Part shown: positions 318-19,977 of the stretch, piece by piece | Layout: every line of letters starts with the position of its first letter | How positions within the stretch are numbered: the stretch's first letter is position 1 | Virus record (IMG/VR): IMGVR_UViG_3300020294_000004 | Direction: 5' to 3' (one strand) | DNA from: an uncultured virus (IMG/VR IMGVR_UViG_3300020294_000004) | Taxonomy: Duplodnaviria > Heunggongvirae > Uroviricota > Caudoviricetes > Crassvirales | DNA: 20,000 nt | Made by a program: the position numbers and the translations under genes | The notes under the pieces: model-generated | The model's input: the letters and a program-made list of their open reading frames with translations, nothing else | What the model was told of the DNA's origin: nothing | Database searches by the model: none

Positions 318-1790
318 TTAATATGCAGATTCTACATAATCTGATGAAGCTGCAAAAAGTTCTTTCATACCTCCTGGATCTGTTAAAGTATCAGTAGATA
401 TTTTAACTGTTGCAAAATATCCTTTAATACCTGTCATTTTATTACCAAATATAATTTCTCCAGGAGCTGCCGTACTATTGTTTACTAAATTAGCCATATA
501 TTTATTTTCTTTTCTAGTAAACCCAGCATAATTAACTGGTGGTACAAGTGGTTTTGTATTGGCTGTAATTGGTGTAGTAGTAGTATTAACAAATGTATTA
601 CCATGATTATCATATGAACCTTCGTTAAAACTATATATAAAACTAACACTATCGTTAGTATTTACTGTACTAAAATTGTCAAAATCAATATTAGTATATC
701 CTATACCTGTAGAATCTGATATAAAACTATCTACCTGCCAACCATTACTACCTTCGTAATTTATTGTTTTAAATACTTTAGATACACTTACATTAGGATT
801 AAAAATAAATTCTATTGAAGCTTTACTCTGTGTACCATAAAAATTACATCGAGGTTGTGTATCTATATAATGTTGATATAAACCAGCTGTATCTGTACTA
901 CCAACAACAGATGGTCCTGTTGTATAAAACTTATTTCTTAAACTTAACATCATACCAGGTTTATAACTATATAAACTAGTCCAACCTTGTACTGTTTCAT
1001 CAAAAGATAGTGTTTTATATTCTATTCCAGTGTTAGAAGGTTGTATAGATAAAACATATTGTTTATTATATATATCCCAACCACCTTGTAGTTTACCTGT
1101 ACCTAATGTACCAAATTGATCTCTAAAGAAATCAATCATACCATAGTTAGATATTTCTGTTAAACCATCTTGTGATAGTCTCATTACAGCATTTCTATCT
1201 TTATCAGTAAAATATTTTCTTCTACCATATACAGCAAAGCTTTCAGGATTTTTACTTATACCAAAGTTACCTACATAAGCTTGTATTTGGCCTATTACAT
1301 TAGGCCCAGATGTTATAGTTGCATTACCTTCTGCAGAATAAATAGCATCTTTATCTATTAACGCTCTACTTATTTTCTTTTCTTGGAATATAATTAAGTT
1401 AGTGTCTTCTGCATAAATTTTTTGTATACTACCATTTGCAGGGTCTACACTTTTAATTATATCTTCACCTACAGAAAATACATTGGTGTCATTTATACCT
1501 GTTCTTGAATTAAATATACCTGAGTAAATAAGCGAGTTAATTCTAAATGAAGCATTAGGACTATCTTCTACTAAAAATGCTTTAACTCCTTGGCCAACAT
1601 AAGTATTGTTATATCCACCTCTAATTCTTGCTTCTTCAACAGCCCAGTTATTCATGTTAGCAGGTAAAGTACCTAAAGTAGCATCACCTCTAGAGCCATT
1701 CCATCCTACAGCAGAAGGCTGTGTGCCATCTGTTGCGGTTTTACGAAGTATAAAACTATTAAAATATTTTACCTCTATAGTTGCTGCCAT
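318..1790 (-). CDS. Tail stabilisation/muzzle-like protein, C-terminal (beta-propeller-type) part
   Basis: 490-aa beta-rich ORF in the tail cluster. Motifs GSIQKIYAEDTNLIIFQEKK, FGISKNPESFAVYG, YFTDKDRNAVMRLSQDGLTEIS and TLSFDETVQGWTSLYSYKP resemble, from recall, the C-terminal half of crAss-like stabilisation/muzzle proteins. Confidence 0.7.
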   Translation of the reverse strand: MAATIEVKYFNSFILRKTATDGTQPSAVGWNGSRGDATLGTLPANMNNWAVEEARIRGGYNNTYVGQGVKAFLVEDSPNASFRINSLIYSGIFNSRTGINDTNVFSVGEDIIKSVDPANGSIQKIYAEDTNLIIFQEKKISRALIDKDAIYSAEGNATITSGPNVIGQIQAYVGNFGISKNPESFAVYGRRKYFTDKDRNAVMRLSQDGLTEISNYGMIDFFRDQFGTLGTGKLQGGWDIYNKQYVLSIQPSNTGIEYKTLSFDETVQGWTSLYSYKPGMMLSLRNKFYTTGPSVVGSTDTAGLYQHYIDTQPRCNFYGTQSKASIEFIFNPNVSVSKVFKTINYEGSNGWQVDSFISDSTGIGYTNIDFDNFSTVNTNDSVSFIYSFNEGSYDNHGNTFVNTTTTPITANTKPLVPPVNYAGFTRKENKYMANLVNNSTAAPGEIIFGNKMTGIKGYFATVKISTDTLTDPGGMKELFAASSDYVESAY

Positions 1791-10238: not shown

Positions 10239-11687
10239 TTAAATACCTTTGAATAATACAAAGTTATTTGCAGCTTGAGTTACTAAACATCTTTCTGATA
10301 GGAAGTTTACTTCCATAGCATCAAGATTAGAAGTGTAAGCACCTCCAGCTGATCCAGTTAACCAAGACTTCATACGTCTGTCTTCTGTTTGAGAAGCTCT
10401 ATATCTAACGTGTAAGAATGGTCTTCTAATGTTTGTACCTAAAATTTGGTCATAAACAGTTGAAGTACCAGCAGGGATTAATACTCCTTCAATTGATTGA
10501 GTACCATCAATAGCACCTCTTGTAGAAGCGTCATTTAAGTATTTCCAATCAGTTTTGTAGAAGTCATATGAACCTCTTCTGAAACCACTAAATCCAAGAT
10601 TTAAAGCCATTTCTTCTGAGTTTTCAAATAATCCATAAGCAGTACCACCATTGCTACCGTAAGATACATTAGATAACATGTTATCAAAGTCTAAAGCTGT
10701 AGATCTTTGTAAGAATAACATATTTTCTTCAATAGCACCTTGAGTATCTAGGTTTTTAAGTATTGCATCAAAGTCATCTAAACCAGAAGCCGCAGAAAAT
10801 CCTACTTCTACGTTACCTCTTGTAGAGATAGCAGCGAAAAGACCTTCAGTACCTTTGAAACCAGCAGCAAATGCATCACCAGCTCCAACGTTAACAGCTT
10901 TTTCACCTTCAACACATACCATTTCTAAATAATCTTCAAATCTAAGTCTTGTTTCAGACTCAGCTTTTAAATACCATAAATAACCTGTAGTTCCATCTTC
11001 TGTAGCAACTTCAACCCAACCTATTTGAGCCATATCAGATCCGTTTATTGTGTAAACATTTCTAATTATGATAGGTGAATTGTTATATTGTTGAAAAGCA
11101 GGAGTTACAGTTATCTGTGGTTGAACAGCTGTATTTCCAGTTATGTTACCTGCAGCAGCGTTAGATGTAGCAGCGCCTTTAACAAATTCTGAACCATATA
11201 CAAATATTTTAAATTTAGCTGCATTAATGCTAGCTAAAGTTGTAGCAGTATAAGGAGATACGTGAACGTGACCGTTTGCAGTATCTGACTCAGTTACAAC
11301 ACCTTTAAGCTCTGCACCTTGATCATCTAATAAAACTACTGTTGAACCGGGTGAAATAACATTTCTTGTTACACCTGGAGAAGTAGGAAGTGGAACAGTT
11401 ACTCTTCTTGTTCCGTTGTGAGTACAGTTATCATATGCAATATGTAATCTGTTTTGTTCTGACCAAACAACTTGATCTGAAGTCATAGGCATTTCAGCAC
11501 CTACCATACGTAAAAAACCAGAAAGAGTTCTGTTTCCATATCTTTCTACTTCTTGTTCGTATATTTCAGGTAGATATTGCTGAGCAAAATCATTATTACC
11601 ATCTGTAAAAGATAGGTAATTACTGGCTAATAGCTGCTGATTAGGAGCAGGAACTATTGAGCCAAATTGTGGAGTTAAAATTCCCAT
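10239..11687 (-). CDS. Major capsid protein (HK97 fold, crAss-like)
   Basis: 482 aa, after portal and scaffold, followed by a hairpin. N-terminal QQYLPEIYEQEVERYGNRTLSGFLRMVGAEMPMTSDQVVWSEQNRLH and C-terminal MEVNFLSERCLVTQAANNF resemble MCPs of this phage group. Confidence 0.85.
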   Translation of the reverse strand: MGILTPQFGSIVPAPNQQLLASNYLSFTDGNNDFAQQYLPEIYEQEVERYGNRTLSGFLRMVGAEMPMTSDQVVWSEQNRLHIAYDNCTHNGTRRVTVPLPTSPGVTRNVISPGSTVVLLDDQGAELKGVVTESDTANGHVHVSPYTATTLASINAAKFKIFVYGSEFVKGAATSNAAAGNITGNTAVQPQITVTPAFQQYNNSPIIIRNVYTINGSDMAQIGWVEVATEDGTTGYLWYLKAESETRLRFEDYLEMVCVEGEKAVNVGAGDAFAAGFKGTEGLFAAISTRGNVEVGFSAASGLDDFDAILKNLDTQGAIEENMLFLQRSTALDFDNMLSNVSYGSNGGTAYGLFENSEEMALNLGFSGFRRGSYDFYKTDWKYLNDASTRGAIDGTQSIEGVLIPAGTSTVYDQILGTNIRRPFLHVRYRASQTEDRRMKSWLTGSAGGAYTSNLDAMEVNFLSERCLVTQAANNFVLFKGI

Positions 11688-11704
11688 AATTTATTTATTT
11701 ATTT

Positions 11705-12985
11705 TTAATTAAACGTTTTTCTTTTTATTTTTAACTTTGAAGAATCAACACCACTAATTGCTTTTACTTTTAAACCATTTACAAATAATTCACCTGAAGC
11801 TGTTTTACGAGGTTCAGTTGTTATATTTTTAGATTTAGCCATCTGTTCTTTTAATGCATCAGTTTTACCTTGTTCATAAAAGTGATTAGCAATAGTATCA
11901 GCATTTCGTGCAGCAAATAAAGCTTTGTGGTATCCTTTAGCGTCAGTTACATCTCCTTTTTCATTTAAGAACGTCTTAATAAAGTTTGATATATTACTTT
12001 GACTTTGGGCCACTGATGAAGGGTCTTTAATACCATATCTGAATTTTTTTTCTCCTAATTTAAAATCAAAACCTTTGAATTCTTCGTTGAGAAGGTTTTT
12101 TGTTTCAGATACAAACCTTTCATGACTAGCTTCACGTGCTTTTTGTTCTTCATTATAGCGATTAAAAAAGTCATTAGCTTTTTGTTGGTCCTGTGTTATG
12201 CCGGGTCTCAACTTGATTTCGTCATAATACTTTGTTTTTAGGTCCTCTAAATAGTTTTTGGCTTTTGCTATCTCTTCTTTATAAGCAAGTTTTTTCTTTT
12301 TTATATCTCGCTCATCATCCACCTCAGTATCAAATCTAAAAGAATCTTCAATTATAAAGTTTCTTTCTTCAGCGTCTAAATGAGGTTTAGCTTGTTTATA
12401 ATATTCATGAAGTAATACATCATTATTTACGTTTGTATAATCAGCATTTAAACGGGCATAATCTTGTACGTCACCACCCGTTTCTTCCATGAATTTTATT
12501 AATTTTTCTATGTTTTCAGGTAACTTTTGTGTTTCAGTTTCCTGTGATATTTTTTCTTGTTTCGATGTGGTAGCGGTAGTTTCATCGCTTCCTGCCACTC
12601 TTGTCTTGTCAGTATTATCTTCTTCATCTGTTATTAATTGTAAAGGTGAATCAGATTCTTCTTTTATTTCTTCAGATTCTTTTTTATCTGTAACATCTTG
12701 AATGGTGTCTTGTACTTGTTCGTCCACCTTAGCGCTATCTCCGGCTTGTTCGCCCACATCCACCTTCTTTGTTTCTCCGACTGGAATGGCATCTTCTTTT
12801 GGTTTTTTAGTTAAATCTACTTTTACTAAATCAGGTATTATTTTTTCTTCACCTAATTGTTTTGGCTTAGTTACTTTTTTTATTTTAAAACTACCTTCTT
12901 CTTTTGGAGGTGTTGTATTTGTAGCTTGTTCTTGTTTAGTTTCTTTTACAGGTTCTTCAACCATTACTTCTTCTTTTTGTGACAT
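11705..12985 (-). CDS. Putative capsid scaffolding/assembly protein (426 aa)
   Basis: Located between portal and MCP. Acidic low-complexity N-terminal third and helical C-terminal part. The start is moved from the ORF-track 13024 to ATG 12985 (MSQKEE), because the extra 13 codons are AT-rich leader overlapping the portal stop. Confidence 0.65.
   Translation of the reverse strand: MSQKEEVMVEEPVKETKQEQATNTTPPKEEGSFKIKKVTKPKQLGEEKIIPDLVKVDLTKKPKEDAIPVGETKKVDVGEQAGDSAKVDEQVQDTIQDVTDKKESEEIKEESDSPLQLITDEEDNTDKTRVAGSDETTATTSKQEKISQETETQKLPENIEKLIKFMEETGGDVQDYARLNADYTNVNNDVLLHEYYKQAKPHLDAEERNFIIEDSFRFDTEVDDERDIKKKKLAYKEEIAKAKNYLEDLKTKYYDEIKLRPGITQDQQKANDFFNRYNEEQKAREASHERFVSETKNLLNEEFKGFDFKLGEKKFRYGIKDPSSVAQSQSNISNFIKTFLNEKGDVTDAKGYHKALFAARNADTIANHFYEQGKTDALKEQMAKSKNITTEPRKTASGELFVNGLKVKAISGVDSSKLKIKRKTFN
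12508..12627 (-). CDS. Putative overprinted microprotein (39 aa, +1 frame in scaffold gene): MKKIILTRQEWQEAMKLPLPHRNKKKYHRKLKHKSYLKT
   Basis: Hand translation from ATG 12627 to TAG 12510-12508. GC is 25/50 at 12561-12610 versus 14/60 at 12631-12690. Contains an NKKKYxRKxKHK motif reminiscent of ArfA-like basic tails. Confidence 0.6.
   Translation of the reverse strand: MKKIILTRQEWQEAMKLPLPHRNKKKYHRKLKHKSYLKT
12664..12792 (-). CDS. Putative overprinted microprotein (42 aa, +1 frame in scaffold gene): MPFQSEKQRRWMWANKPEIALRWTNKYKTPFKMLQIKKNLKK
   Basis: Hand translation from ATG 12792 to TAA 12666-12664. GC jumps at the ATG: 39/70 at 12721-12790 versus 23/100 at 12801-12900. A-rich leader. Resembles the MPFxSExQRRxMxAxxPExAxRW small proteins I recall as free-standing phage ORFs. 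Confidence 0.7.
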   Translation of the reverse strand: MPFQSEKQRRWMWANKPEIALRWTNKYKTPFKMLQIKKNLKK

Positions 12986-13010
12986 AATATAATAATATAA
13001 AATTAATAAT

Positions 13011-15428
13011 CTATTGTGGAGCAAACTGCTCTAAACCAAATCCATCTAAATTATCATTACCAGCACTTTCAAAATTTACAGGTAATGTATCATTTTGTCT
13101 TTGATTTATTAATTCACTCTCTTGAGTTCCTTGCATTTGTACGCGTTTGTCTTTTCTATCTTCTATTTCTGTTTCTTTTTGACGTTTTGTTTGAGATCTC
13201 ATTTCTTCAAGCTGTATGTTATATCTAAATTCTTCAGCCATTAATTGTTTTTTAATTAATGCTTCTTGTTCCATACGTTGTATCTCAAATTGAGATTTTG
13301 CTTGTTCTATTTGAACTTCGGTATCAGCTAATGCTTGGTTTTTTTGTACTTCTGCCATTGCAGCTTTTTCAGCTGACTGTGCATTGGCAGCTGCTTGAGC
13401 TTGTATATTTTCTAATTGTTGTGCTCTGTCTTTTTCTTGCTTTTGTTTTTGCCTTAACTTAAGCATTTGATTAGCAAGTTTAATATTTTTTATTTCTCTT
13501 AAATCTATTGCATCTTCTAAACCTATATTTTTAGCTTGTAATGCAATTTGTATACTTTGTTCTAGTTGAGCTTTTTCTTCTTCATCAGGTTCAAGTTCTA
13601 AAAATATACCAAAATCATGTAAAGATAATTTTTCAACTTCTTCTAATGTTGCTGTATTAAAACCATTTATACTGTTTATTAAAGACTGTTTAGTTGTTGG
13701 AAACTGTAACATATCTGATACTCTTAAACTAATATTTTCACAAACTCTTACAGTTAAATACATTAATGCTTGTAACACATGTCTTGTAGCTGTATTAGAA
13801 TTAGCAGCTGCAAGCTTTTGTAAACCAACTAAAGCATTTTTATCAGGCGTGCTACCATCTCTTGCTTCATTAAGCCCGGTTACATCTCTTATCATTTGTA
13901 AATAATATTGATAAGTTTGTATCATTGACTGTATTTTAGACATGCCTGAAGACGTCTGTAATTCTTGCACCGGTACTTTACCTCTATTTAAATCACCATC
14001 TTGAGTTAAAGATCTTCCTACTACACTACCTGTTTGAAAATACATATTTAACGCTTCAGCAGGATTATAATTTGTACCATTACCTAAATCAACTTCGGCT
14101 AACCCATCAACATCTAAATAAACACCATCAGGTACTAACCTTGATATTACTTGTTGTAGTTTTAAATGAGTTAATTGAATCATATCTGCAAATCCAACTG
14201 TTTTACTTACAATAGATTCTATACGGCCTTGATACATTCTAGGTGAACTAATAACGTAATTCATATTAACTTTAGTCGTATCACCAAAAGGCCTTGTCAT
14301 GTTTTCACTTAATTCCCATTTTAAAAGATTATTACCAAGACCTAAAACTTTAGCTCCAGTATATAATACTTCTATTGATCTTGATATTCTATTAAAGTTA
14401 TCACTAGGTGGTGGATTAAATGTATCTGGTTTTTCTAATGTTTTTTCTAAACCTTGTTCTGTTTGTTTTATTTTAAAAACTTGATCTTGATAAGTTTTAT
14501 ATTCAAAATATAATATTTGTACTTGATCTTTAGTGTCTTGGCCCCACCAAGTGTTTTCTAGATATGTATTTCTACCAGGGTATTTTTGTATTTCTTCTAA
14601 TTCTGAATCTGTTAAATAAGGAAATTGTCTTTTAACTTCTGATAATGACATACTTTTAACCTCACCTACATAATATATATCTTCAAAATTTGGATCATCA
14701 GTATATGAATATACTAAATTAGCTGGATTTACATAATCTATAGTTATTCCTTCAGATAAATTAAAATCAGTTTTAACACAACCTATACCTAAAACAGTTA
14801 GATCGTATGCTAATTGTTTTTTTACTTGATCATATTTATTATAGTCTAAAATATTATTTATAACTTCTTCTTCTGCTATTTCAACACTTTGTTTAAAGTT
14901 TAATTGTAAATAAAGATCTAATTCTTCTGTAGTTCCTGGTAAATCATCTGGTGATGCTGAAGCAAATAAATTAGCATTAGGGCCTAATTGAGCTTGTAAT
15001 GCTTCAATCATTTCTTTATTTTCAATATCTCTTATAGCATTTTGAGCAAATGTAGTTTTATTTTTTATAGCAAATGGATCTTGAGCAAAAGATTTTATTT
15101 CATAACCTTTTTGTGTCATACCATTTACTACTATATCTACAAACTTAGATAATATTGGTACAGGCTTCCAATCTAAATTTAAATAAGATAAATCACCATT
15201 TATAGCTAATTCATCTTTATATTTTTGTACTGGTTGTTCTCCTCTAGCGTAAAGTCTTAGTCTATTAAAATTTTGAAAATTATTAATATATCTATTTTGA
15301 CCACTAGAGTTTTTAAACCACTCATATTCAATTGCTTGGGCTACTTGTAAACCATACTCTTTTGACTTTTTCTCTTCTTCAGGTACCACCTGATCTGGAA
15401 AAGCACTGTTATAGTTAATATTAACCAT
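13011..15428 (-). CDS. Portal protein
   Basis: 805 aa, coupled to terL by a TAATG overlap. LDWKPVPILSKFVDIVVNG, IRDVTGLNEARDGS and a long Q/E/K coiled-coil C-terminal barrel are typical of podoviral/crAss-like portals. Confidence 0.88.
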   Translation of the reverse strand: MVNINYNSAFPDQVVPEEEKKSKEYGLQVAQAIEYEWFKNSSGQNRYINNFQNFNRLRLYARGEQPVQKYKDELAINGDLSYLNLDWKPVPILSKFVDIVVNGMTQKGYEIKSFAQDPFAIKNKTTFAQNAIRDIENKEMIEALQAQLGPNANLFASASPDDLPGTTEELDLYLQLNFKQSVEIAEEEVINNILDYNKYDQVKKQLAYDLTVLGIGCVKTDFNLSEGITIDYVNPANLVYSYTDDPNFEDIYYVGEVKSMSLSEVKRQFPYLTDSELEEIQKYPGRNTYLENTWWGQDTKDQVQILYFEYKTYQDQVFKIKQTEQGLEKTLEKPDTFNPPPSDNFNRISRSIEVLYTGAKVLGLGNNLLKWELSENMTRPFGDTTKVNMNYVISSPRMYQGRIESIVSKTVGFADMIQLTHLKLQQVISRLVPDGVYLDVDGLAEVDLGNGTNYNPAEALNMYFQTGSVVGRSLTQDGDLNRGKVPVQELQTSSGMSKIQSMIQTYQYYLQMIRDVTGLNEARDGSTPDKNALVGLQKLAAANSNTATRHVLQALMYLTVRVCENISLRVSDMLQFPTTKQSLINSINGFNTATLEEVEKLSLHDFGIFLELEPDEEEKAQLEQSIQIALQAKNIGLEDAIDLREIKNIKLANQMLKLRQKQKQEKDRAQQLENIQAQAAANAQSAEKAAMAEVQKNQALADTEVQIEQAKSQFEIQRMEQEALIKKQLMAEEFRYNIQLEEMRSQTKRQKETEIEDRKDKRVQMQGTQESELINQRQNDTLPVNFESAGNDNLDGFGLEQFAPQ

Positions 15429-17650
15429 TAATTTAGTATTTTTGAAGTTACTCCTTTATTATTATACTTTTTAAAGTCTAAAGGTAAATTATTTATAGTT
15501 CTTTTTACTGTTGGTGTATATCTGTTTTTATTACAAGCCATAATAGCTAAGCCAGAACTTATGGAAGCATCGTGTTTAGTTCTATTATTTATATTAAACT
15601 TAGCCCAGTCTTCTAGTGTTCTTTGAAAATACATATCACCATATCTTTCATTATTAAATCCAATAAAATTTTCAATATAATCTTCTATCGCAGCTGCATG
15701 TGCTTGTTTTATATCTTCACTTGAATTAGGTATACCACCTATTTCTCTTTCTGTAACAGATAATTTATTATATACTTTATCAGGACGATTCATAGAATAA
15801 CCTCTATAACCTCTTCTTTTTAAATAATATAATAATCTAGGTTTATTATTTTCTGCAAGTAATGGCATACCATAAAAAACTAAAGCCATTAAAACATCTT
15901 CAAAAAATATTTCTGCTGTTTGAGGTCTTGCAATATATTCTAAAAAAAATAAATTAGGTGGTACATCTTCCATTGAAAACTTAGTTAAACCATGTAAAGA
16001 AGCTTTTGAACCTCTACCATCAACTGTTCCTGAAATATCATATGGATCACAACCAAAAGCACCAGTATGATCGTTACCTGGATATTTAACACCATTTTTT
16101 ATAATATACTTGTTTTGTAAATTATCATTAGGTACCCAAGAAACTAAAAATCTACCATTATTATTAGGAATAAATATAACTCTACTATCTTTAATCCCAT
16201 TTTCCCATTGAAAATTACCTTTTGTAATTACATTTGTATTTCTTAAATCTTCATTATAATCAATTTGTTCATAAATTTTAGTTAGATTAAATAAAGATTG
16301 TTTTGCTTCATCTCTAAAAGCGTGTTTTTCTGTTCTAGGAAATTGTCTATAAAATTCATTTAAACCGTCTTGATCATTTTTTAAACCTTCAACTTCGTTT
16401 TCCCAGTGTGAGATAACGCCAATTTCAATGTTGGATCCGTCAATACTTTTGACCGGTTTTTTTGGAGTTTCGAATACAGGAAACCCATAAGTATTAAGGT
16501 ATCCTTCGTAGTTCCATTCCATAGGTATGAACAAACTATATAATCCTGAATTAGTCTGTCCGTTGCGGTTTCTTTTTGTAACATCTGACGCATCATATAA
16601 TTTTTTAAAATTATTACCTCCTTTATCTAAAGCATTAGATGTAGATCCCATCATACACCTACCTATAATTCTACTACCTAATCTTAGCGTTGTCTTCGTG
16701 ACCCTCCAGTTGTTGAGGATGTTATCTGGCCTCTCCCACTTGCCCGATTCATCGTGTGCGAGGAGTTTGAGTTTCTCCCCGTCGTATGAGTTGTCACCGG
16801 TATTCTTCCAGTCGATCGTGGTATCGAGCCCAACGAGTTCCTCGGGACGTTCATTCTGATCGATCTTACGCCTTGTGAACTTCGACGCGGGTACACGATA
16901 TGCAAGTTCCGTTTTGGGACGATCCATACCGTCCTGTATCGGTTTAAAAAAGAATGGGTAATTAACGGATATTGGTACCACTTTGTCTGTAAACATTTTC
17001 TTCGCATCTGCTCCAGTCTTTGATAATATCCCGTACCGTGAATCACTAGATATTGTTGCCTGGTGTACGAGTTCTGATGAGGCCATAAAAGAAAATCCCG
17101 ATCTTCTATTCTTGAGATAGCACATTCCATAGGATCTGGTATCAAGTTTACAGGCTTCCCAAAATATGAAAAAGATTCTATTGGCTTCTCTGAATTCCGC
17201 GTTGCCAACATCAATTTTTGTCCACTGCAAGTACATATAATGAGACCCAGTAATATAGCTAGGAATACCTTTGTTATAGAAACAAAAGCCTTCTTCACGT
17301 CTTTTAAACTCTTCGTCAATATAATCATACCAAGTATTTTTAAAATCTAATGATGTTTGGTTCCAATCAAAAACTGTTTTAAGTTTTGATAATTGTTTTG
17401 GGTACTCAAATATTTCCCAATATTGATCTGTTTTATTTACAGATCTTTTATATACATTTTCACTTAAAGGTAAAGCTATTTTTAAACCCTGTATTTCATA
17501 TATTTCACCTATTTTACCTGTTTTACTTATAACAACTACATCGTGTTCTTTGTTATAACCTGGTTCCCATTTTTTATACCTATTATTATTTTTTATAATT
17601 TTAGGTTTTATATGATTAGGTAAAATTTTATATAAAGTGTTTGTATACAT
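15428..17650 (-). CDS. terL: Terminase large subunit
   Basis: 740 aa. Walker A variant LKNRRSGFS, Walker B LLAHDESGK, coupling motif GSTSN, nuclease motifs GAFGCDPYD and HDASISSG. Directly upstream of the portal. Confidence 0.93.
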   Translation of the reverse strand: MYTNTLYKILPNHIKPKIIKNNNRYKKWEPGYNKEHDVVVISKTGKIGEIYEIQGLKIALPLSENVYKRSVNKTDQYWEIFEYPKQLSKLKTVFDWNQTSLDFKNTWYDYIDEEFKRREEGFCFYNKGIPSYITGSHYMYLQWTKIDVGNAEFREANRIFFIFWEACKLDTRSYGMCYLKNRRSGFSFMASSELVHQATISSDSRYGILSKTGADAKKMFTDKVVPISVNYPFFFKPIQDGMDRPKTELAYRVPASKFTRRKIDQNERPEELVGLDTTIDWKNTGDNSYDGEKLKLLAHDESGKWERPDNILNNWRVTKTTLRLGSRIIGRCMMGSTSNALDKGGNNFKKLYDASDVTKRNRNGQTNSGLYSLFIPMEWNYEGYLNTYGFPVFETPKKPVKSIDGSNIEIGVISHWENEVEGLKNDQDGLNEFYRQFPRTEKHAFRDEAKQSLFNLTKIYEQIDYNEDLRNTNVITKGNFQWENGIKDSRVIFIPNNNGRFLVSWVPNDNLQNKYIIKNGVKYPGNDHTGAFGCDPYDISGTVDGRGSKASLHGLTKFSMEDVPPNLFFLEYIARPQTAEIFFEDVLMALVFYGMPLLAENNKPRLLYYLKRRGYRGYSMNRPDKVYNKLSVTEREIGGIPNSSEDIKQAHAAAIEDYIENFIGFNNERYGDMYFQRTLEDWAKFNINNRTKHDASISSGLAIMACNKNRYTPTVKRTINNLPLDFKKYNNKGVTSKILN
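16381..16596 (-). CDS. Possible second overprinted ORF in terL (+1 frame, 71 aa)
   Basis: ORF track. Same frame as 16684-17328. GC is 66/180 at 16381-16560 versus 25/120 at 16201-16320. No recognisable motif. Confidence 0.35.
   Translation of the reverse strand: MMRQMLQKETATDRLIQDYIVCSYLWNGTTKDTLILMGFLYSKLQKNRSKVLTDPTLKLALSHTGKTKLKV
16684..17328 (-). CDS. Putative overprinted lipoprotein/membrane-anchored protein (+1 frame within the terL ATPase domain, 214 aa; alternative GTG start at 17298)
   Basis: 214 stop-free codons in the +1 frame of an AT-rich gene. Basic N-region, hydrophobic VFLAILLGLII, then CTC-SG (Cys32/Cys34). R/S/T/G-rich tail. GC is 94/180 at 16741-16920 and collapses right after its stop. 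Confidence 0.6.
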   Translation of the reverse strand: MIILTKSLKDVKKAFVSITKVFLAILLGLIICTCSGQKLMLATRNSEKPIESFSYFGKPVNLIPDPMECAISRIEDRDFLLWPHQNSYTRQQYLVIHGTGYYQRLEQMRRKCLQTKWYQYPLITHSFLNRYRTVWIVPKRNLHIVYPRRSSQGVRSIRMNVPRNSLGSIPRSTGRIPVTTHTTGRNSNSSHTMNRASGRGQITSSTTGGSRRQR

Positions 17651-17922
17651 TATCTAGATCTTCCTTCAGCAAAACCTCCAAAATTAGAAGCTTTAGTATT
17701 TTTATTAATAGAATTAATTATATTTTCTTCTTCTTCAATTCTTGATAGTATTTCAAAAGCATCAAATATAGCTAATTTTTTTGTAGCAGCAGCGTTTTTT
17801 AATCTGTCAGCTGATACATCATCTTCTGAATCTACAATTTTTTCTTTAGCTACTTTTATTAATTCTTCAACTGCTTTTTGCCCAGCTTGGATTATACGTT
17901 TTTTGGTTTTGTTTATTTCCAT
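17650..17922 (-). CDS. Probable terminase small subunit (90 aa)
   Basis: Small helical protein coupled to terL by TAATG at 17650. The start is revised from the ORF-track 18009 to ATG 17922 (MEINKTKKRIIQAG). Function is assigned by position and size only. Confidence 0.5.
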   Translation of the reverse strand: MEINKTKKRIIQAGQKAVEELIKVAKEKIVDSEDDVSADRLKNAAATKKLAIFDAFEILSRIEEEENIINSINKNTKASNFGGFAEGRSR

Positions 17923-18469
17923 ATTTAAATAAAATATCATTTGATTCCATACAGTATAAAAGTTCATTATCAATAACAAACTCAAATTCTCTATTACTTT
18001 TAAACCCAACTAGATCTCCTGTGTTAATTTTAAGGGCTTCTAACGTGCTGTTTGTATATTTTAATACTCCAGTATTTTTTATTAATTTGGTATCTTTATA
18101 TACATCTTTTTCTAATACTGGTTTTACAAAACAATAATCTGCGTTTGTTTTCCACCCTTTTTTATAATACATATAAATTTGAGATGGATGTGCAAAATAT
18201 AAATTGTCTTTAAAAAACTTAGTACTATTTACTGATTTGCCTTTTAAATTATAATACCTTCTAAATAAATTATGATGTACTATAACTTTGTCACCTTTTT
18301 TTATATTTGTTTTATAAGCAAGAGGTGCAGCAACTATTTCAGCATGTCTATTTATAAATTTATGATTTGATATACTTGAGTTAAGTATAAGTTCTGTGTT
18401 GTTGATTTTTAATTTATTATTATATCTTTCACCTATAGGTTTTATAATAAATTGATATATACTATTCAT
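17867..18469 (-). CDS. GroES/Cpn10-like co-chaperonin with two tandem domains
   Basis: 200 aa with two GroES-like units: FIIKP...AEIVAAP...IKKGDKVIV and YCFVKP...TGVLKY...INTGDLVGF..EFEFVIDNELLYCMESNDIL. Compare GroES vkvGDkVlf..gtevkidgeeylilresDIL. Confidence 0.65.
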   Translation of the reverse strand: MNSIYQFIIKPIGERYNNKLKINNTELILNSSISNHKFINRHAEIVAAPLAYKTNIKKGDKVIVHHNLFRRYYNLKGKSVNSTKFFKDNLYFAHPSQIYMYYKKGWKTNADYCFVKPVLEKDVYKDTKLIKNTGVLKYTNSTLEALKINTGDLVGFKSNREFEFVIDNELLYCMESNDILFKYGNKQNQKTYNPSWAKSS

Positions 18470-19596: not shown

Positions 19597-19977
19597 TTAT
19601 TTTACTTTGTCTTTTATTTTTTCATAAGTTCTAAGTCCACCTAATCCTAACATACCTAATAGTACAGTCATTAAATGTTCCATTTGTAGTGGTGGTGGTA
19701 CGTCTGTTGATTTTGTAATCCATATAAATAAATCACGAATAACAAAATTATATGCTAAAGCAAAACCACATATCCAACCTACAAAAGGTCGCCACCCTGC
19801 AACAAATAAAGTTCTATGCGAGGCTTCAACCATATTAATTTTTGTTTGTAATTCTATTAGTTTTTCTGGATCAAGCTCTTTACCTTTAATGGCTTCTCTT
19901 ATTTCCCAAGCTAAACCTCCAGCGACAGATTTTCTACCATCACCTCCTTTAAGAAGACCTAGTAGTAATTTCCACAT
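19597..19977 (-). CDS. Holin, 3-TM GTA-type family (GTA_holin_3TM-like)
   Basis: Signature INMVEASHRTLFVAGWRPFVGWICG and C-terminal LLGMLGLGGLRTYEK, with hydrophobic segments. Confidence 0.8.
   Translation of the reverse strand: MWKLLLGLLKGGDGRKSVAGGLAWEIREAIKGKELDPEKLIELQTKINMVEASHRTLFVAGWRPFVGWICGFALAYNFVIRDLFIWITKSTDVPPPLQMEHLMTVLLGMLGLGGLRTYEKIKDKVK

Follow-up and report, generated by a model that had tools for sequence, protein, structure and literature searches.

Candidate nested genes in the +1 frames of the terminase and scaffold-position genes of an uncultured Crassvirales phage

Embedded ORFs and GC patches around terL

The window, a 20,000-nucleotide stretch from an uncultured marine Crassvirales virus, carries the genes for a large terminase subunit (terL) and a portal protein, a gene situated between portal and major capsid protein, and four ORFs embedded in the first and last of these (Table 1). 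An earlier note had reported the four ORFs, and we confirmed their coordinates, their coding-strand orientation and their frame: all are on the minus strand, and each starts one base (modulo 3) after its host frame, that is, in the +1 frame. The terL product matches phrog_6681 without a break (E 5.5e-162; residues 27-737 against profile positions 12-753 of 758), and because this match is continuous, the GC-rich patch within the gene is terL coding sequence and not an insertion. The third gene has no Pfam or PHROG match and owes its "scaffold" label to position alone; its first ~150 residues are of low complexity and 35-55% identical among relatives.

Table 1 Coordinates of host genes, embedded ORFs and related features in the window
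Feature	Position	Strand	Remarks
terL (large terminase subunit, 740 aa)	15428..17650	-	phrog_6681 match; hosts ORF1 and the 71-aa ORF
ORF1, 214-codon +1 ORF	16684..17328	-	over terL codons 108-322
ORF1 residues ~23-36, hydrophobic run and C.C.G motif	17221..17262	-	terL codons 130-143
GC3-rich terL patch	16690..17290	-	same extent as ORF1
71-aa +1 ORF	16381..16596	-	terL codons 352-424
terL core of strongest synonymous constraint	16475..16564	-	codons ~363-392
Portal gene (context)	13011..15428	-	phrog_6547, E 7.4e-137
Scaffold-position gene	11705..12985 (alternative start 13024)	-	between portal and major capsid protein; hosts the 42-aa ORF
MPF microprotein gene, 42 aa, MPFQSEKQRRWMW...	12664..12792	-	nested, +1 frame
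39-aa +1 ORF	12508..12627	-	inside the scaffold-position gene

The earlier note had also assigned a GC-enriched patch to each ORF. In 200-base windows, GC content is 0.37-0.53 at 16600-17299 versus 0.205-0.25 in the flanks, 0.335-0.375 at 16300-16599, and 0.36-0.38 at 12600-12899 versus 0.255 in adjoining sequence. The 39-aa ORF has no distinct patch, its GC of 0.315-0.335 resembling that of its neighbours. Within terL the enrichment resides in third codon positions: GC3 reaches 0.40-0.73 over codons ~120-315, and most codons outside them have 0.03-0.17. We examined the length of +1 open runs by whole-gene synonymous permutation, using the window's genes alone. The terL runs of 220 and 81 codons were longer than expected (P<0.002 and P=0.004), the scaffold-position gene runs of 48 and 46 codons gave P=0.15 and P=0.01, and the portal gene had no unusual +1 ORF (longest run 29 codons, P=1.0). 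Among the other window genes only a 58-codon +1 run in a 490-aa gene stood out (P=0.04).

The +1 frame across the terL ATPase core

We compared terL in 81 sequences, namely the window and 80 loci at 74-91% terL identity. In 60 of these the ORF1 frame runs without a stop for 150 codons or more, and in 29 it has none anywhere across terL codons 108-322; the +2 frame holds 14-40 stops in every sequence. Scattered +1 stops in homologues, which the earlier note had named as speaking against its reading, are absent over ORF1 from most relatives. Synonymous permutation within the interval, which keeps the GC patch's own codon composition, gave a null mean of 5.8-5.9 stops for the window, where none occurs (P<0.001), and a null mean of 3.8-8.0 with P<=0.003 in 15/15 zero-stop sequences tested. 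Resampling from background codon usage yielded 11.9-16.9 expected stops, and 0/1000 resamples reached the observed count in any of the seven ORF1 carriers tested (four with zero stops and three with 3-5). Over codons 161-262 the density of +1 stops per 100 codons is 0.0 in carriers and 3.9 in non-carriers, against 7.5 elsewhere in the gene. This depletion is peculiar to the +1 frame, the +2 and three antisense frames showing nothing alike.

These results bear on a different account, in which ORF1 is untranslated and a GC-rich terL tract was kept or exchanged for other reasons (such as recombination, a role of the DNA or RNA itself, or selection on codons across the ATPase core), the +1 frame being merely left open. 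GC-rich DNA does contain fewer stop triplets in all frames, and inside the patch the +2 and antisense frames have modestly fewer of them; however, the patch's own codon composition still predicts 4-8 stops in the one frame that is depleted. Moreover, relatives of equal or higher GC3 (L054, L055, L008 and L009 among the higher-GC ones) still have 9-11 +1 stops in the ORF1 interval, so the patch is not a tract from a higher-GC phage, as the earlier note had allowed it might be. The ends of ORF1 also argue for a coding frame: they cluster at a few terL codons (263, 294 and 322/324), and GC3 falls right after each. Clade by clade, GC3 of codons 295-321 is 0.68-0.69 where ORF1 ends at 322/324, 0.26 where it ends at 294, 0.25 where it ends at 263, and 0.19 where it is absent, a coupling that could in principle run inversely, the stop then being a product of the patch edge.

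The terL wobble bases that encode the LL.LL.L..C.C.G motif of ORF1 are fixed in carriers only, which again argues against a frame merely left open. The Leu141 codon is xTG in 60/60 carriers and TTA in 13/17 low-GC non-carriers; the Thr134 codon is ACT in 60/60 carriers, and in the low-GC non-carriers (n=17) it is ACT in 9 and ACA in 8. Synonymous variability is reduced over terL codons ~101-160 (0.30-0.32 versus 0.36-0.43), and its observed/expected ratio dips to 0.68-0.78 over codons ~126-135, overlapping the C.C.G region. The reduction anticipated by the earlier note is therefore present in the first ~50 codons of ORF1 and gives way to raised differences in the rest: variability is elevated 1.2-1.7 fold over codons 161-320, and in close pairs the terL synonymous differences in the last ~160 codons of ORF1 are 0.257 versus 0.152 and 0.452 versus 0.269. 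Apart from openness and composition, these last ~160 codons show no signal of purifying selection. Synonymous sites that evolve faster than background in most of the patch, together with a tail predicted to be disordered, are points in favour of the untranslated account.

At the start of ORF1, the upstream +1 frame closes just ~6 codons before the ATG in many relatives, and five of the seven sequences with a +1 stop at codon 111 have a replacement ATG at codon 112. The ATG at terL codon 108 occurs in 9/16 non-carriers as well and is partly a by-product of a Tyr-Asp pair in terL. ORF1 is missing in 21/81 relatives and is therefore not essential; it has been lost or exchanged repeatedly among close relatives. 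One "absent" control (L034) keeps a significant 82-codon +1 run and another relative (L068) is partly stop-depleted (P=0.002), which fits recent loss of ORF1 but blurs the carrier and non-carrier classes. Close pairs that differ in ORF1 state are less alike in the terL patch than expected, as in L058/L068, by terL identity (0.874 in the patch versus 0.933 in the C-terminal part), which hints at exchange of the tract and on this point agrees with the untranslated account. Taken as a whole, we consider that account improbable.

The ORF1 product is predicted to consist of an N-terminal hydrophobic helix and a basic, disordered tail that is rich in Arg, Ser, Thr, Gly and Pro, fast-evolving, and of pI ~10-11. 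AlphaFold returned a mean pLDDT of 40.6, with residues 36-214 below 50. The one pointer toward a lipoprotein is a language-model cluster labelled "putative lipoprotein" (score 0.92), and the recognition score of the model for ORF1 is low (1435). The lipobox consensus is [LVI][ASTVI][GAS]C following the h-region of a signal peptide. We rejected a bacterial lipoprotein or Rz1-like o-spanin, since the ORF1 motif is L-[IT]-[ITM]-C-[TI]-C and its -1 residue is never G, A or S. The "envelope protein" of the earlier note stays putative, the hydrophobic N-terminus being short and the Cys motif outside that consensus. In composition, ORF1 is shifted toward C/G, Arg, Ser and Pro and away from Ile and Leu.

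The MPF frame and the two remaining ORFs

The 42-aa ORF encodes a conserved microprotein with the N-terminal motif MPFKSEKQRR, here called MPF. Its residues 3-27 match positions 17-41 of the 70 in phrog_1375 at a modest E of 3.3e-4, and 10/30 relatives match the same profile (best E 7.9e-6). Residues M1, P2, F3, Q8 and P17 are invariant in 30/30 sequences, and the peptide retrieves 415 short database proteins at E<=1e-3. In 74 of the best 80 viral loci MPF lies inside a ~400-codon gene and is read in its +1 frame. Over this region amino-acid identity is 0.53 in the +1 frame versus 0.41 in frame 0, and nucleotide diversity at +1 codon positions 1, 2 and 3 is 0.33, 0.32 and 0.44, the third being the most variable. 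The product is predicted to form a helical hairpin (pLDDT 84-90 over residues 1-20). The window's peptide has no Pfam match at E<=10. DUF3008, an Atlas lead with a score of only 0.83 that covered 15% of cluster members, was rejected, as it is absent among the families matched by any of the 30 relatives.

The earlier note had expected gene callers to miss such frames. Public gene-call collections nevertheless contain 158 representative proteins matching ORF1 and the 415 matches to the microprotein; two annotated distant relatives do list no gene inside terL, yet both also lack ORF1. MPF matches also fall in gaps between annotated genes of Prochlorococcus phage P-RSP2 and phage C75C1. RNA-library (metatranscriptome) contigs span no more than fragments here and may be DNA carry-over.

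Could the +1 frames instead be reached by programmed frameshifting, joining terL codons 1-~105 to ORF1 by a +1/-2 shift and MPF to the scaffold-position protein by a -1 shift near the A-rich 3' end of MPF? In the window, codon 36 of MPF carries an A_AAA_AAG heptamer in phase, the MPF motif heads proteins of 98-920 aa elsewhere (411 longer database proteins carry it, and proteins of 393 and 420 aa on two other viral contigs start with it), and some public gene calls are chimeras of terL with ORF1 or of the scaffold gene with MPF. However, an in-phase X_XXY_YYZ heptamer is found in only 50/98 distinct MPF ORFs, varying in place and type, and the chimeras are most simply indel errors in assemblies. 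The start residues of MPF are invariant and its stand-alone homologues begin at MPF, while the closed upstream frame and the replacement ATG of ORF1 likewise speak for internal starts. We regard frameshifting as highly improbable.

The earlier note counted all four ORFs as hidden genes. Conserved +1 frames among relatives uphold ORF1 and MPF; the 71-aa and 39-aa ORFs did not gain such support. The codon-shuffling null proposed there, clear for ORF1, hardly sets the 71-aa ORF apart from chance: within-interval permutation gave P=0.03 in the window and P 0.1-0.5 in 8/9 zero-stop relatives tested, three further tested sequences carrying one stop. In 79/81 sequences no stop interrupts the 71-aa frame from codon 342 to ~400-423 (~58-86 codons), L054 and L055 having a run of only 51 codons. 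This openness follows from the terL amino-acid sequence and is uninformative, because only 0.5-2.4 +1 stops are expected there. In L005, L006, L033 and L044 the first ATG of the ORF lies out of place, at codon 363-404, profile searches gave no family match, and two more distant phages have an open run at the site whose peptide is unrelated (elemovirus) or only partly similar. On the other side, this ORF overlaps the strongest synonymous constraint in terL, over codons ~363-392 (obs/exp 0.46-0.78, with 0.46-0.54 at its strongest), and a need to encode a third nested gene would explain it. The core is common to ORF1 carriers and non-carriers, and its nucleotides hardly vary, even at the rare codons TTG, TTC and TAC. 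We detected no RNA fold signal in the core (z -0.45) and no Rfam match at E<=1 over 11500-18000, so neither accounts for the constraint. A third real gene here seems doubtful to us.

The 39-aa ORF is probably a chance frame, judging from its distribution. A +1 run of at least 35 codons follows the MPF stop in 5/69 distinct scaffold genes, only two of which (L090 and L102) resemble the window's peptide. Among terL-anchored loci a matching 40-codon run is confined to the close relatives L004 and L007, and L065, L073 and L026 have shorter or longer +1 runs at a similar place.

Proposed origin of the nested frames and comparison with known overlapping genes

On the comparative evidence, we think it likely that the window carries two real nested genes, each overlapping a late gene for structure or packaging in the +1 frame. 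ORF1 translation would start at the ATG at 17328 within the terL mRNA and cross the terminase ATPase core. As the terL protein constrains codon positions 1 and 2 of its gene, and the free terL wobble corresponds to the second codon position of ORF1, selection on ORF1 may shift terL wobble bases from A/T to C/G; such a shift would remove +1 stops and hydrophobic residues and thereby create the GC3 patch. We infer that the product is a late accessory protein, whose helix may anchor or oligomerise and whose basic tail may bind a polyanion (DNA or envelope); it would be dispensable, because relatives have repeatedly lost or swapped it. MPF would start at its invariant first codons in an A-rich context, within an N-terminal linker where the scaffold-position gene is under little constraint, and the nested frame would bear most of the constraint in this overlap. 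The conserved frames, the selection signatures, the family to which MPF belongs and the predicted structures are results of the analysis; translation, initiation site, localisation and function of both products are proposals.

A broader reading, which we hold unlikely and offer tentatively, is that ORF1 arose de novo in the terL ATPase core for host interaction or counter-defence, with alleles exchanged, and that MPF is a portable module. If true, the ORF1 product would be a fast-evolving factor with diversifying selection acting on its basic tail, co-occurring marine Flavobacteriia-type phages would swap terL alleles with and without ORF1, and the GC3 patch would record, in readable form, how the gene was born, truncated and lost. 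MPF would then be an N-terminal module occurring free, nested or fused, possibly a capsid- or portal-targeting signal.

Overprinted and nested genes as such are already known; ORF1 and MPF would be new cases. In PhiX174, the external scaffolding gene D contains the lysis gene E in its +1 frame. The parallel lies in a same-strand +1 gene within a head-assembly gene and in an N-terminal hydrophobic segment of the product, and we claim no sequence likeness. With its 5-kb ssDNA genome PhiX174 is under strong pressure to stay small, whereas the window comes from a dsDNA tailed phage with listed relatives of ~60-61 kb, a holin of its own (window 19597-19977) and an endolysin (L083 10255-10620).

For Rz1 within Rz of phage lambda, the published account describes important regions of one protein lying over less important ones of the other (PMC5295617). 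The likeness is that a late phage gene contains a whole second gene, same-strand and +1-frame; MPF occupies its host's low-constraint linker, and the low-constraint tail of ORF1 covers the high-constraint core of terL. The hosts here are instead terL and the scaffold-position gene and not an i-spanin; ORF1 is a 214-aa protein with a basic tail, unlike the short proline-rich lipoproteins of Rz1 type, and its Cys motif departs from the lipobox. We claim no functional link between host and guest.

Published surveys report that viral overlapping genes are enriched in C, Arg, Ser and Pro, depleted in A/T, Ile and Tyr, and tend to predicted disorder and a narrow taxonomic range (PMC6195259; PMC8227390; bioRxiv 10.1101/229690). 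ORF1 agrees with this bias in its composition shift, its predicted disorder and its taxonomic range. Most documented overprinted genes belong to small RNA or ssDNA viruses, whereas ORF1 spans the terminase ATPase core of a tailed phage and has been repeatedly lost or exchanged among close relatives. MPF, finally, matches the phrog_1375 profile, and the invariant motif at its N-terminus recurs in hundreds of short phage proteins predicted elsewhere; it differs in being nested out of frame here, as in 74 of the closest 80 loci.

Open reading frames nested in the terL and scaffold-position genes

The window has a GC content of 31% and carries every large gene on the minus strand. It corresponds to the initial 20 kb of a contig of 37,045 bases, in reverse orientation; elsewhere this contig carries genes for ribonucleotide reductase, a MazG-like protein and an endolysin, along with large ORFs that lack an assignment. 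PHROG profiles identified terL, the portal gene and, in the position of the major capsid protein, a virion protein that is followed by further virion proteins, while the scaffold-position gene is named from its place between portal and capsid alone and matched no Pfam or PHROG family. Among named phages, the closest at the DNA level, sharing 65-72% identity in parts of terL, are one uncultured podovirus and the 'elemo' podophages of Flavobacterium. Marine or viral metagenome runs from nine studies dated 2013-2025, one of them possibly the source, contain near-identical DNA (a match to 80% or more of the words sampled from window positions 11600-18100), and this phage type is common and widespread in seawater. 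Directly upstream of terL lies a gene for a 200-residue GroES-like co-chaperonin (phrog_13932, E 6.2e-24), which shares about 140 bases with a 119-aa ORF that stops at the terL start and is without a family match. No small terminase subunit was identified.

Features of the window and of related loci
Feature	Position	Strand	Basis or remark
holin	19597-19977		
GroES-like co-chaperonin gene	17867-18469	-	phrog_13932
119-aa ORF	17650-18009	-	no family match
terL	17650..15428	-	PHROG profile, E 5.5e-162
ORF1	17328..16684	-	+1 frame of terL
71-aa ORF	16596..16381	-	+1 frame of terL
constraint core	16475-16564 (terL codons ~363-392)	-	synonymous obs/exp down to 0.46
portal gene	15428..13011	-	PHROG profile
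scaffold-position gene	13024/12985..11705	-	place between portal and capsid
MPF ORF	12792..12664	-	+1 frame of scaffold-position gene
39-aa ORF	12627..12508	-	+1 frame of scaffold-position gene
virion protein at major-capsid position	11687..10239	-	PHROG profile
490-aa virion-protein gene	318-1790	-	
MPF-headed long protein, locus L138	L138:2501-3760		
MPF-headed long protein, locus L157	L157:2501-3679		

We found that all four proposed embedded ORFs are present and that each is in the +1 frame relative to its host gene: a 214-codon ORF over terL codons 108-322 (ORF1), a 71-aa ORF further along terL, and, in the scaffold-position gene, the 42-aa ORF of an MPFKSEKQRR microprotein (MPF) and a 39-aa ORF. 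The earlier note had tied each to a GC-enriched patch and read them together as a hidden set of +1 genes. The patches are real for three of the four ORFs but not for the 39-aa ORF. As a gene set the proposal narrows to ORF1 and MPF, which are supported, whereas the openness of the 71-aa ORF is uninformative and the 39-aa ORF is treated as chance: of the 69 distinct scaffold-position genes, 5 show a comparable run, and the peptide is common to close relatives only. In terL the enrichment sits at third codon positions, where GC (GC3) is 0.40-0.73 over codons ~120-315, 0.23-0.40 over codons ~346-405 and 0.00-0.17 at most other codons. When synonymous codons were permuted across each gene of the window, the terL +1 frame alone was a clear outlier: its open runs span 220 codons (P<0.002) and 81 codons (P=0.004). 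In the scaffold-position gene, the 48-codon run had P=0.15 and the 46-codon run P=0.01, and elsewhere a marginal +1 run (58 codons, P=0.04) was seen in the 490-aa virion-protein gene alone.

ORF1 and its host gene terL

Searches of viral contigs recovered 599 terL relatives, and the best 80 of these (74-91% amino-acid identity) were codon-aligned with the window sequence; because relatives share kinship, counts among these 81 sequences are not counts of independent events. Consistent with a nested gene, 60 of the 81 kept the +1 frame open over 150 codons or more and 29 lacked any +1 stop across codons 108-322, while the +2 frame of the interval held 14-40 stops in all 81. ORF1 ended at codon 322 (20 sequences), 324 (9), 317 (3), 294 (16), 272 (2), 269 (2) or 263 (8), and was missing from the other 21. 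An ATG at codon 108 was present in 52 of 59 carriers but also in 9 of 16 non-carriers, because the terL Tyr-Asp pair tends to generate ATG; where a +1 stop fell at codon 111, an ATG stood at codon 112 in 5 of 7 sequences.

The earlier note had proposed a codon-shuffling null for +1 ORF length, and ORF1 was more open than such nulls predict. Permuting synonymous codons within the interval, which retains the patch's own codon usage, led to a mean expectation of 3.8-8.0 stops, and the open frame was significant in all 15 zero-stop sequences (P<=0.003). Runs in truncated carriers likewise exceeded this null in 5 of 5 tested (P<=0.003), and four of five non-carrier controls were unremarkable, the exception being locus L034, with a significant 82-codon run. 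Under background codon usage 11.9-16.9 stops were expected, and 0 of 1000 resamples reached the observed count in each of seven carriers tested. Two non-carriers, L068 and L034, were partly stop-depleted against this background (P=0.002 and 0.033), which fits recent loss, and they look like decaying ORF1 copies. The L034 remnant run, within terL codons 108-322, begins at an ATG. Stop depletion was limited to the +1 frame; no specific depletion was found in the antisense and +2 frames of the patch. Furthermore, GC by itself is insufficient to open the +1 frame, because four relatives with high GC3 throughout the gene and a comparable interval GC3 of 0.33-0.52 (L054, L055, L008 and L009) carry 9-11 +1 stops.

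The GC3 patch follows ORF1 extent. Over codons 295-321, GC3 was 0.68-0.69 in sequences whose ORF1 ends at codon 322 or 324, 0.26 and 0.25 in those ending at 294 and 263, and 0.19 where ORF1 is absent; over codons 264-293 the corresponding values were 0.61-0.66, 0.65, 0.20 and 0.12. An origin of the patch as a recombinant tract from higher-GC phages, the alternative raised in the earlier note, was rejected since the higher-GC relatives are without ORF1. An insertion, intein or intron in terL was also rejected, because the PHROG match is unbroken and the patch is the best-conserved stretch of terL at the amino-acid level. On the terL tree, ORF1 absence requires at least six changes on well-supported branches, and several well-supported sister pairs are opposite in ORF1 state. 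In these pairs the patch is somewhat more diverged in amino acids than expected, so it is possible that the tract was swapped between relatives. ORF1 was absent from two more distant annotated phages, and nothing was annotated inside their terL.

The expectation of reduced synonymous variability, measured here by simplified pair counts, held for the first ~50 residues of ORF1 and failed for the remaining ~160 codons. Over terL codons 101-160, synonymous differences were 0.30-0.32 among carriers versus 0.38-0.43 among non-carriers. Leu141 was encoded by xTG in 60 of 60 carriers (Cys in +1) and by TTA in 13 of 17 low-GC non-carriers; Thr134 by ACT in 60 of 60 (Leu in +1), against ACT in 9 and ACA in 8 of the 17; and Gln142 by CAG in 51 of 60, against CAA in 16 of 17. 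At codon 133, 12 of 17 low-GC non-carriers had a +1 stop and no carrier did. The conserved +1 motif here is LL[IT]LL[VAG]L[IT][TI]C[TI]C[SN]G. In the tail, terL synonymous variability was raised to 1.15-1.43 times expectation, and thus openness and composition are the only features visibly kept there. In close carrier pairs, tail synonymous variability was 1.7-fold the level elsewhere in terL, while non-carrier pairs had little excess. Wobble composition over the tail shifts from 0.44 to 0.27 for T, 0.39 to 0.30 for A, 0.07 to 0.23-0.29 for C and 0.08-0.10 to 0.20 for G, which turns the +1 translation from Leu/Ile/Val-rich with stops to Arg/Ser/Thr/Gly/Pro-rich. Across the 60 carriers the tail has a mean pI of 10.6 and a mean net charge of +15.8, and its composition agrees with the bias described for viral overlapping genes in PMC6195259.

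AlphaFold, run with 38 sequences, predicted a helix over ORF1 residues 2-43 (pLDDT 54-77 by block) followed by disorder; the mean pLDDT was 40.6. ORF1, the 71-aa ORF and the 39-aa ORF had no Pfam or PHROG match below E 0.01, and the single match of the ORF1 profile among PDB sequences (E 0.82) revealed no recognisable relative. Against 1.84 billion representative proteins the profile gave 158 matches; the seven inspected, namely the sole full-length match and six longer ones, proved to be either this embedded ORF again or chimeras that switch frame between terL and ORF1, and among these seven no stand-alone or distant homologue was recognised. Frame-switching chimeras, both scaffold-MPF and terL-ORF1, occur among public gene calls (P0003, P0136, P0137, P0140, P0150, P0155 and P0208); assembly indels are their likeliest source, and some may be natural frame-switch variants. 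Short pieces in metatranscriptome contigs (four RNA runs, three studies) match sequence of terL, the portal gene and the scaffold gene, in some cases with 0 differences, but they are uninformative on strand, starts and translation and may be DNA carry-over.

In the interval of the 71-aa ORF, the +1 frame was open from codon 342 (or 334) to ~400-423 in 79 of 81 sequences, L054 and L055 closing at codon 385. This openness is uninformative because the terL amino-acid sequence leads to only 0.5-2.4 expected stops (for the 10 tested sequences with zero stops, P 0.03-0.5; three further sequences had one stop), and the first ATG is shifted in several relatives. The interval contains a constraint core common to all 81 sequences, the strongest synonymous constraint in terL, in which the rare codons TTG, TTC and TAC are near-invariant. 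Neither a stable RNA fold signal nor an Rfam family was found for it, and it could represent either a DNA or RNA site or the central part of a third nested ORF.

The MPF microprotein family

Scaffold-gene homologues carried the second nested ORF as proposed: 40 terL-anchored loci cover 150 codons or more of the scaffold-position gene, and 35 of them have, in the equivalent position, an open +1 run 42-66 codons long; in 33 the ORF starts MPF. The peptides are recognisably one family: 30 of 30 sequences share M1, P2, F3, Q8 and P17. Compared over one stretch of 48 nucleotides, the +1 frame had a mean pairwise identity of 0.53, against 0.41 for the host frame and 0.39 for +2, and the third position of the +1 frame was the most variable nucleotide position. 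The window peptide matches phrog_1375 (E 3.3e-4), as do 10 of 30 relatives; MPF relatives were the only set also scanned with NCBIfam. A-rich sequence lies upstream of the MPF ATG in all relatives. AlphaFold predicted a helical hairpin (mean pLDDT 76; 84-90 over residues 1-20). Profile matches in the PDB were designed repeat propellers only, summing 8-9 stretches of 2.7-4.5 bits, and were discarded as spurious. A -1 frameshift from MPF into the host frame was rejected, its heptamer being present in 50 of 98 distinct ORFs and not conserved.

The family profile matched 415 short predicted proteins, the named ones all 'hypothetical', and in two annotated phages the match falls between annotated genes. 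Among the best 80 of 367 viral loci, 74 had MPF nested, in +1, within a frame of ~400 codons; of the other six, four were cut off near the match and two had the motif heading proteins of 393 and 420 aa. These two are unlike the window scaffold-position protein (E 0.54-1.7) and had nil or weak PHROG matches, and an 807-aa gene upstream of one of them was without a PHROG match. The motif is also found in 411 longer database proteins and, in other viral contigs, stands at the N-terminus of proteins 98-920 aa long (P0273-P0392), so it behaves as a portable N-terminal module. Among ten such longer proteins scanned, the sole recurring Pfam domain was DUF6321, of unknown function, in five.

Proposed overprinting at wobble positions

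Out-of-frame nested genes are well known from tiny viruses and from the lambda Rz/Rz1 pair. Our literature searches found no published nested out-of-frame gene across a terminase gene, and nothing relevant on DUF3008 or Elemovirus. If ORF1 is translated, it would show that a tailed phage can fit a second gene even into its most conserved enzyme core via wobble positions. The terL relatives form a natural series in which ORF1 is full length, truncated at at least three points, or lost. Within this series the state of the hidden gene can be read from the local GC3 patch, which gives a simple and testable way to screen AT-rich phages for similar genes. With MPF, a family comprising hundreds of microproteins that lack annotation gains a real gene.

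Judging from sequence, ORF1 and MPF would both be expressed by internal initiation on late mRNA. The ORF1 product may be an accessory protein that the phage can do without, combining an N-terminal hydrophobic helix with a putative polyanion-binding tail. Its variable tail lies over the most conserved terL residues and draws on terL wobble bases only, and MPF occupies a variable linker of its host gene. The ORF1 N-terminal motif, which overlies conserved terL residues, is an exception. In both supported pairs, strong constraint in one frame otherwise mostly lies opposite weak constraint in the other, as is described for Rz/Rz1 in PMC5295617.
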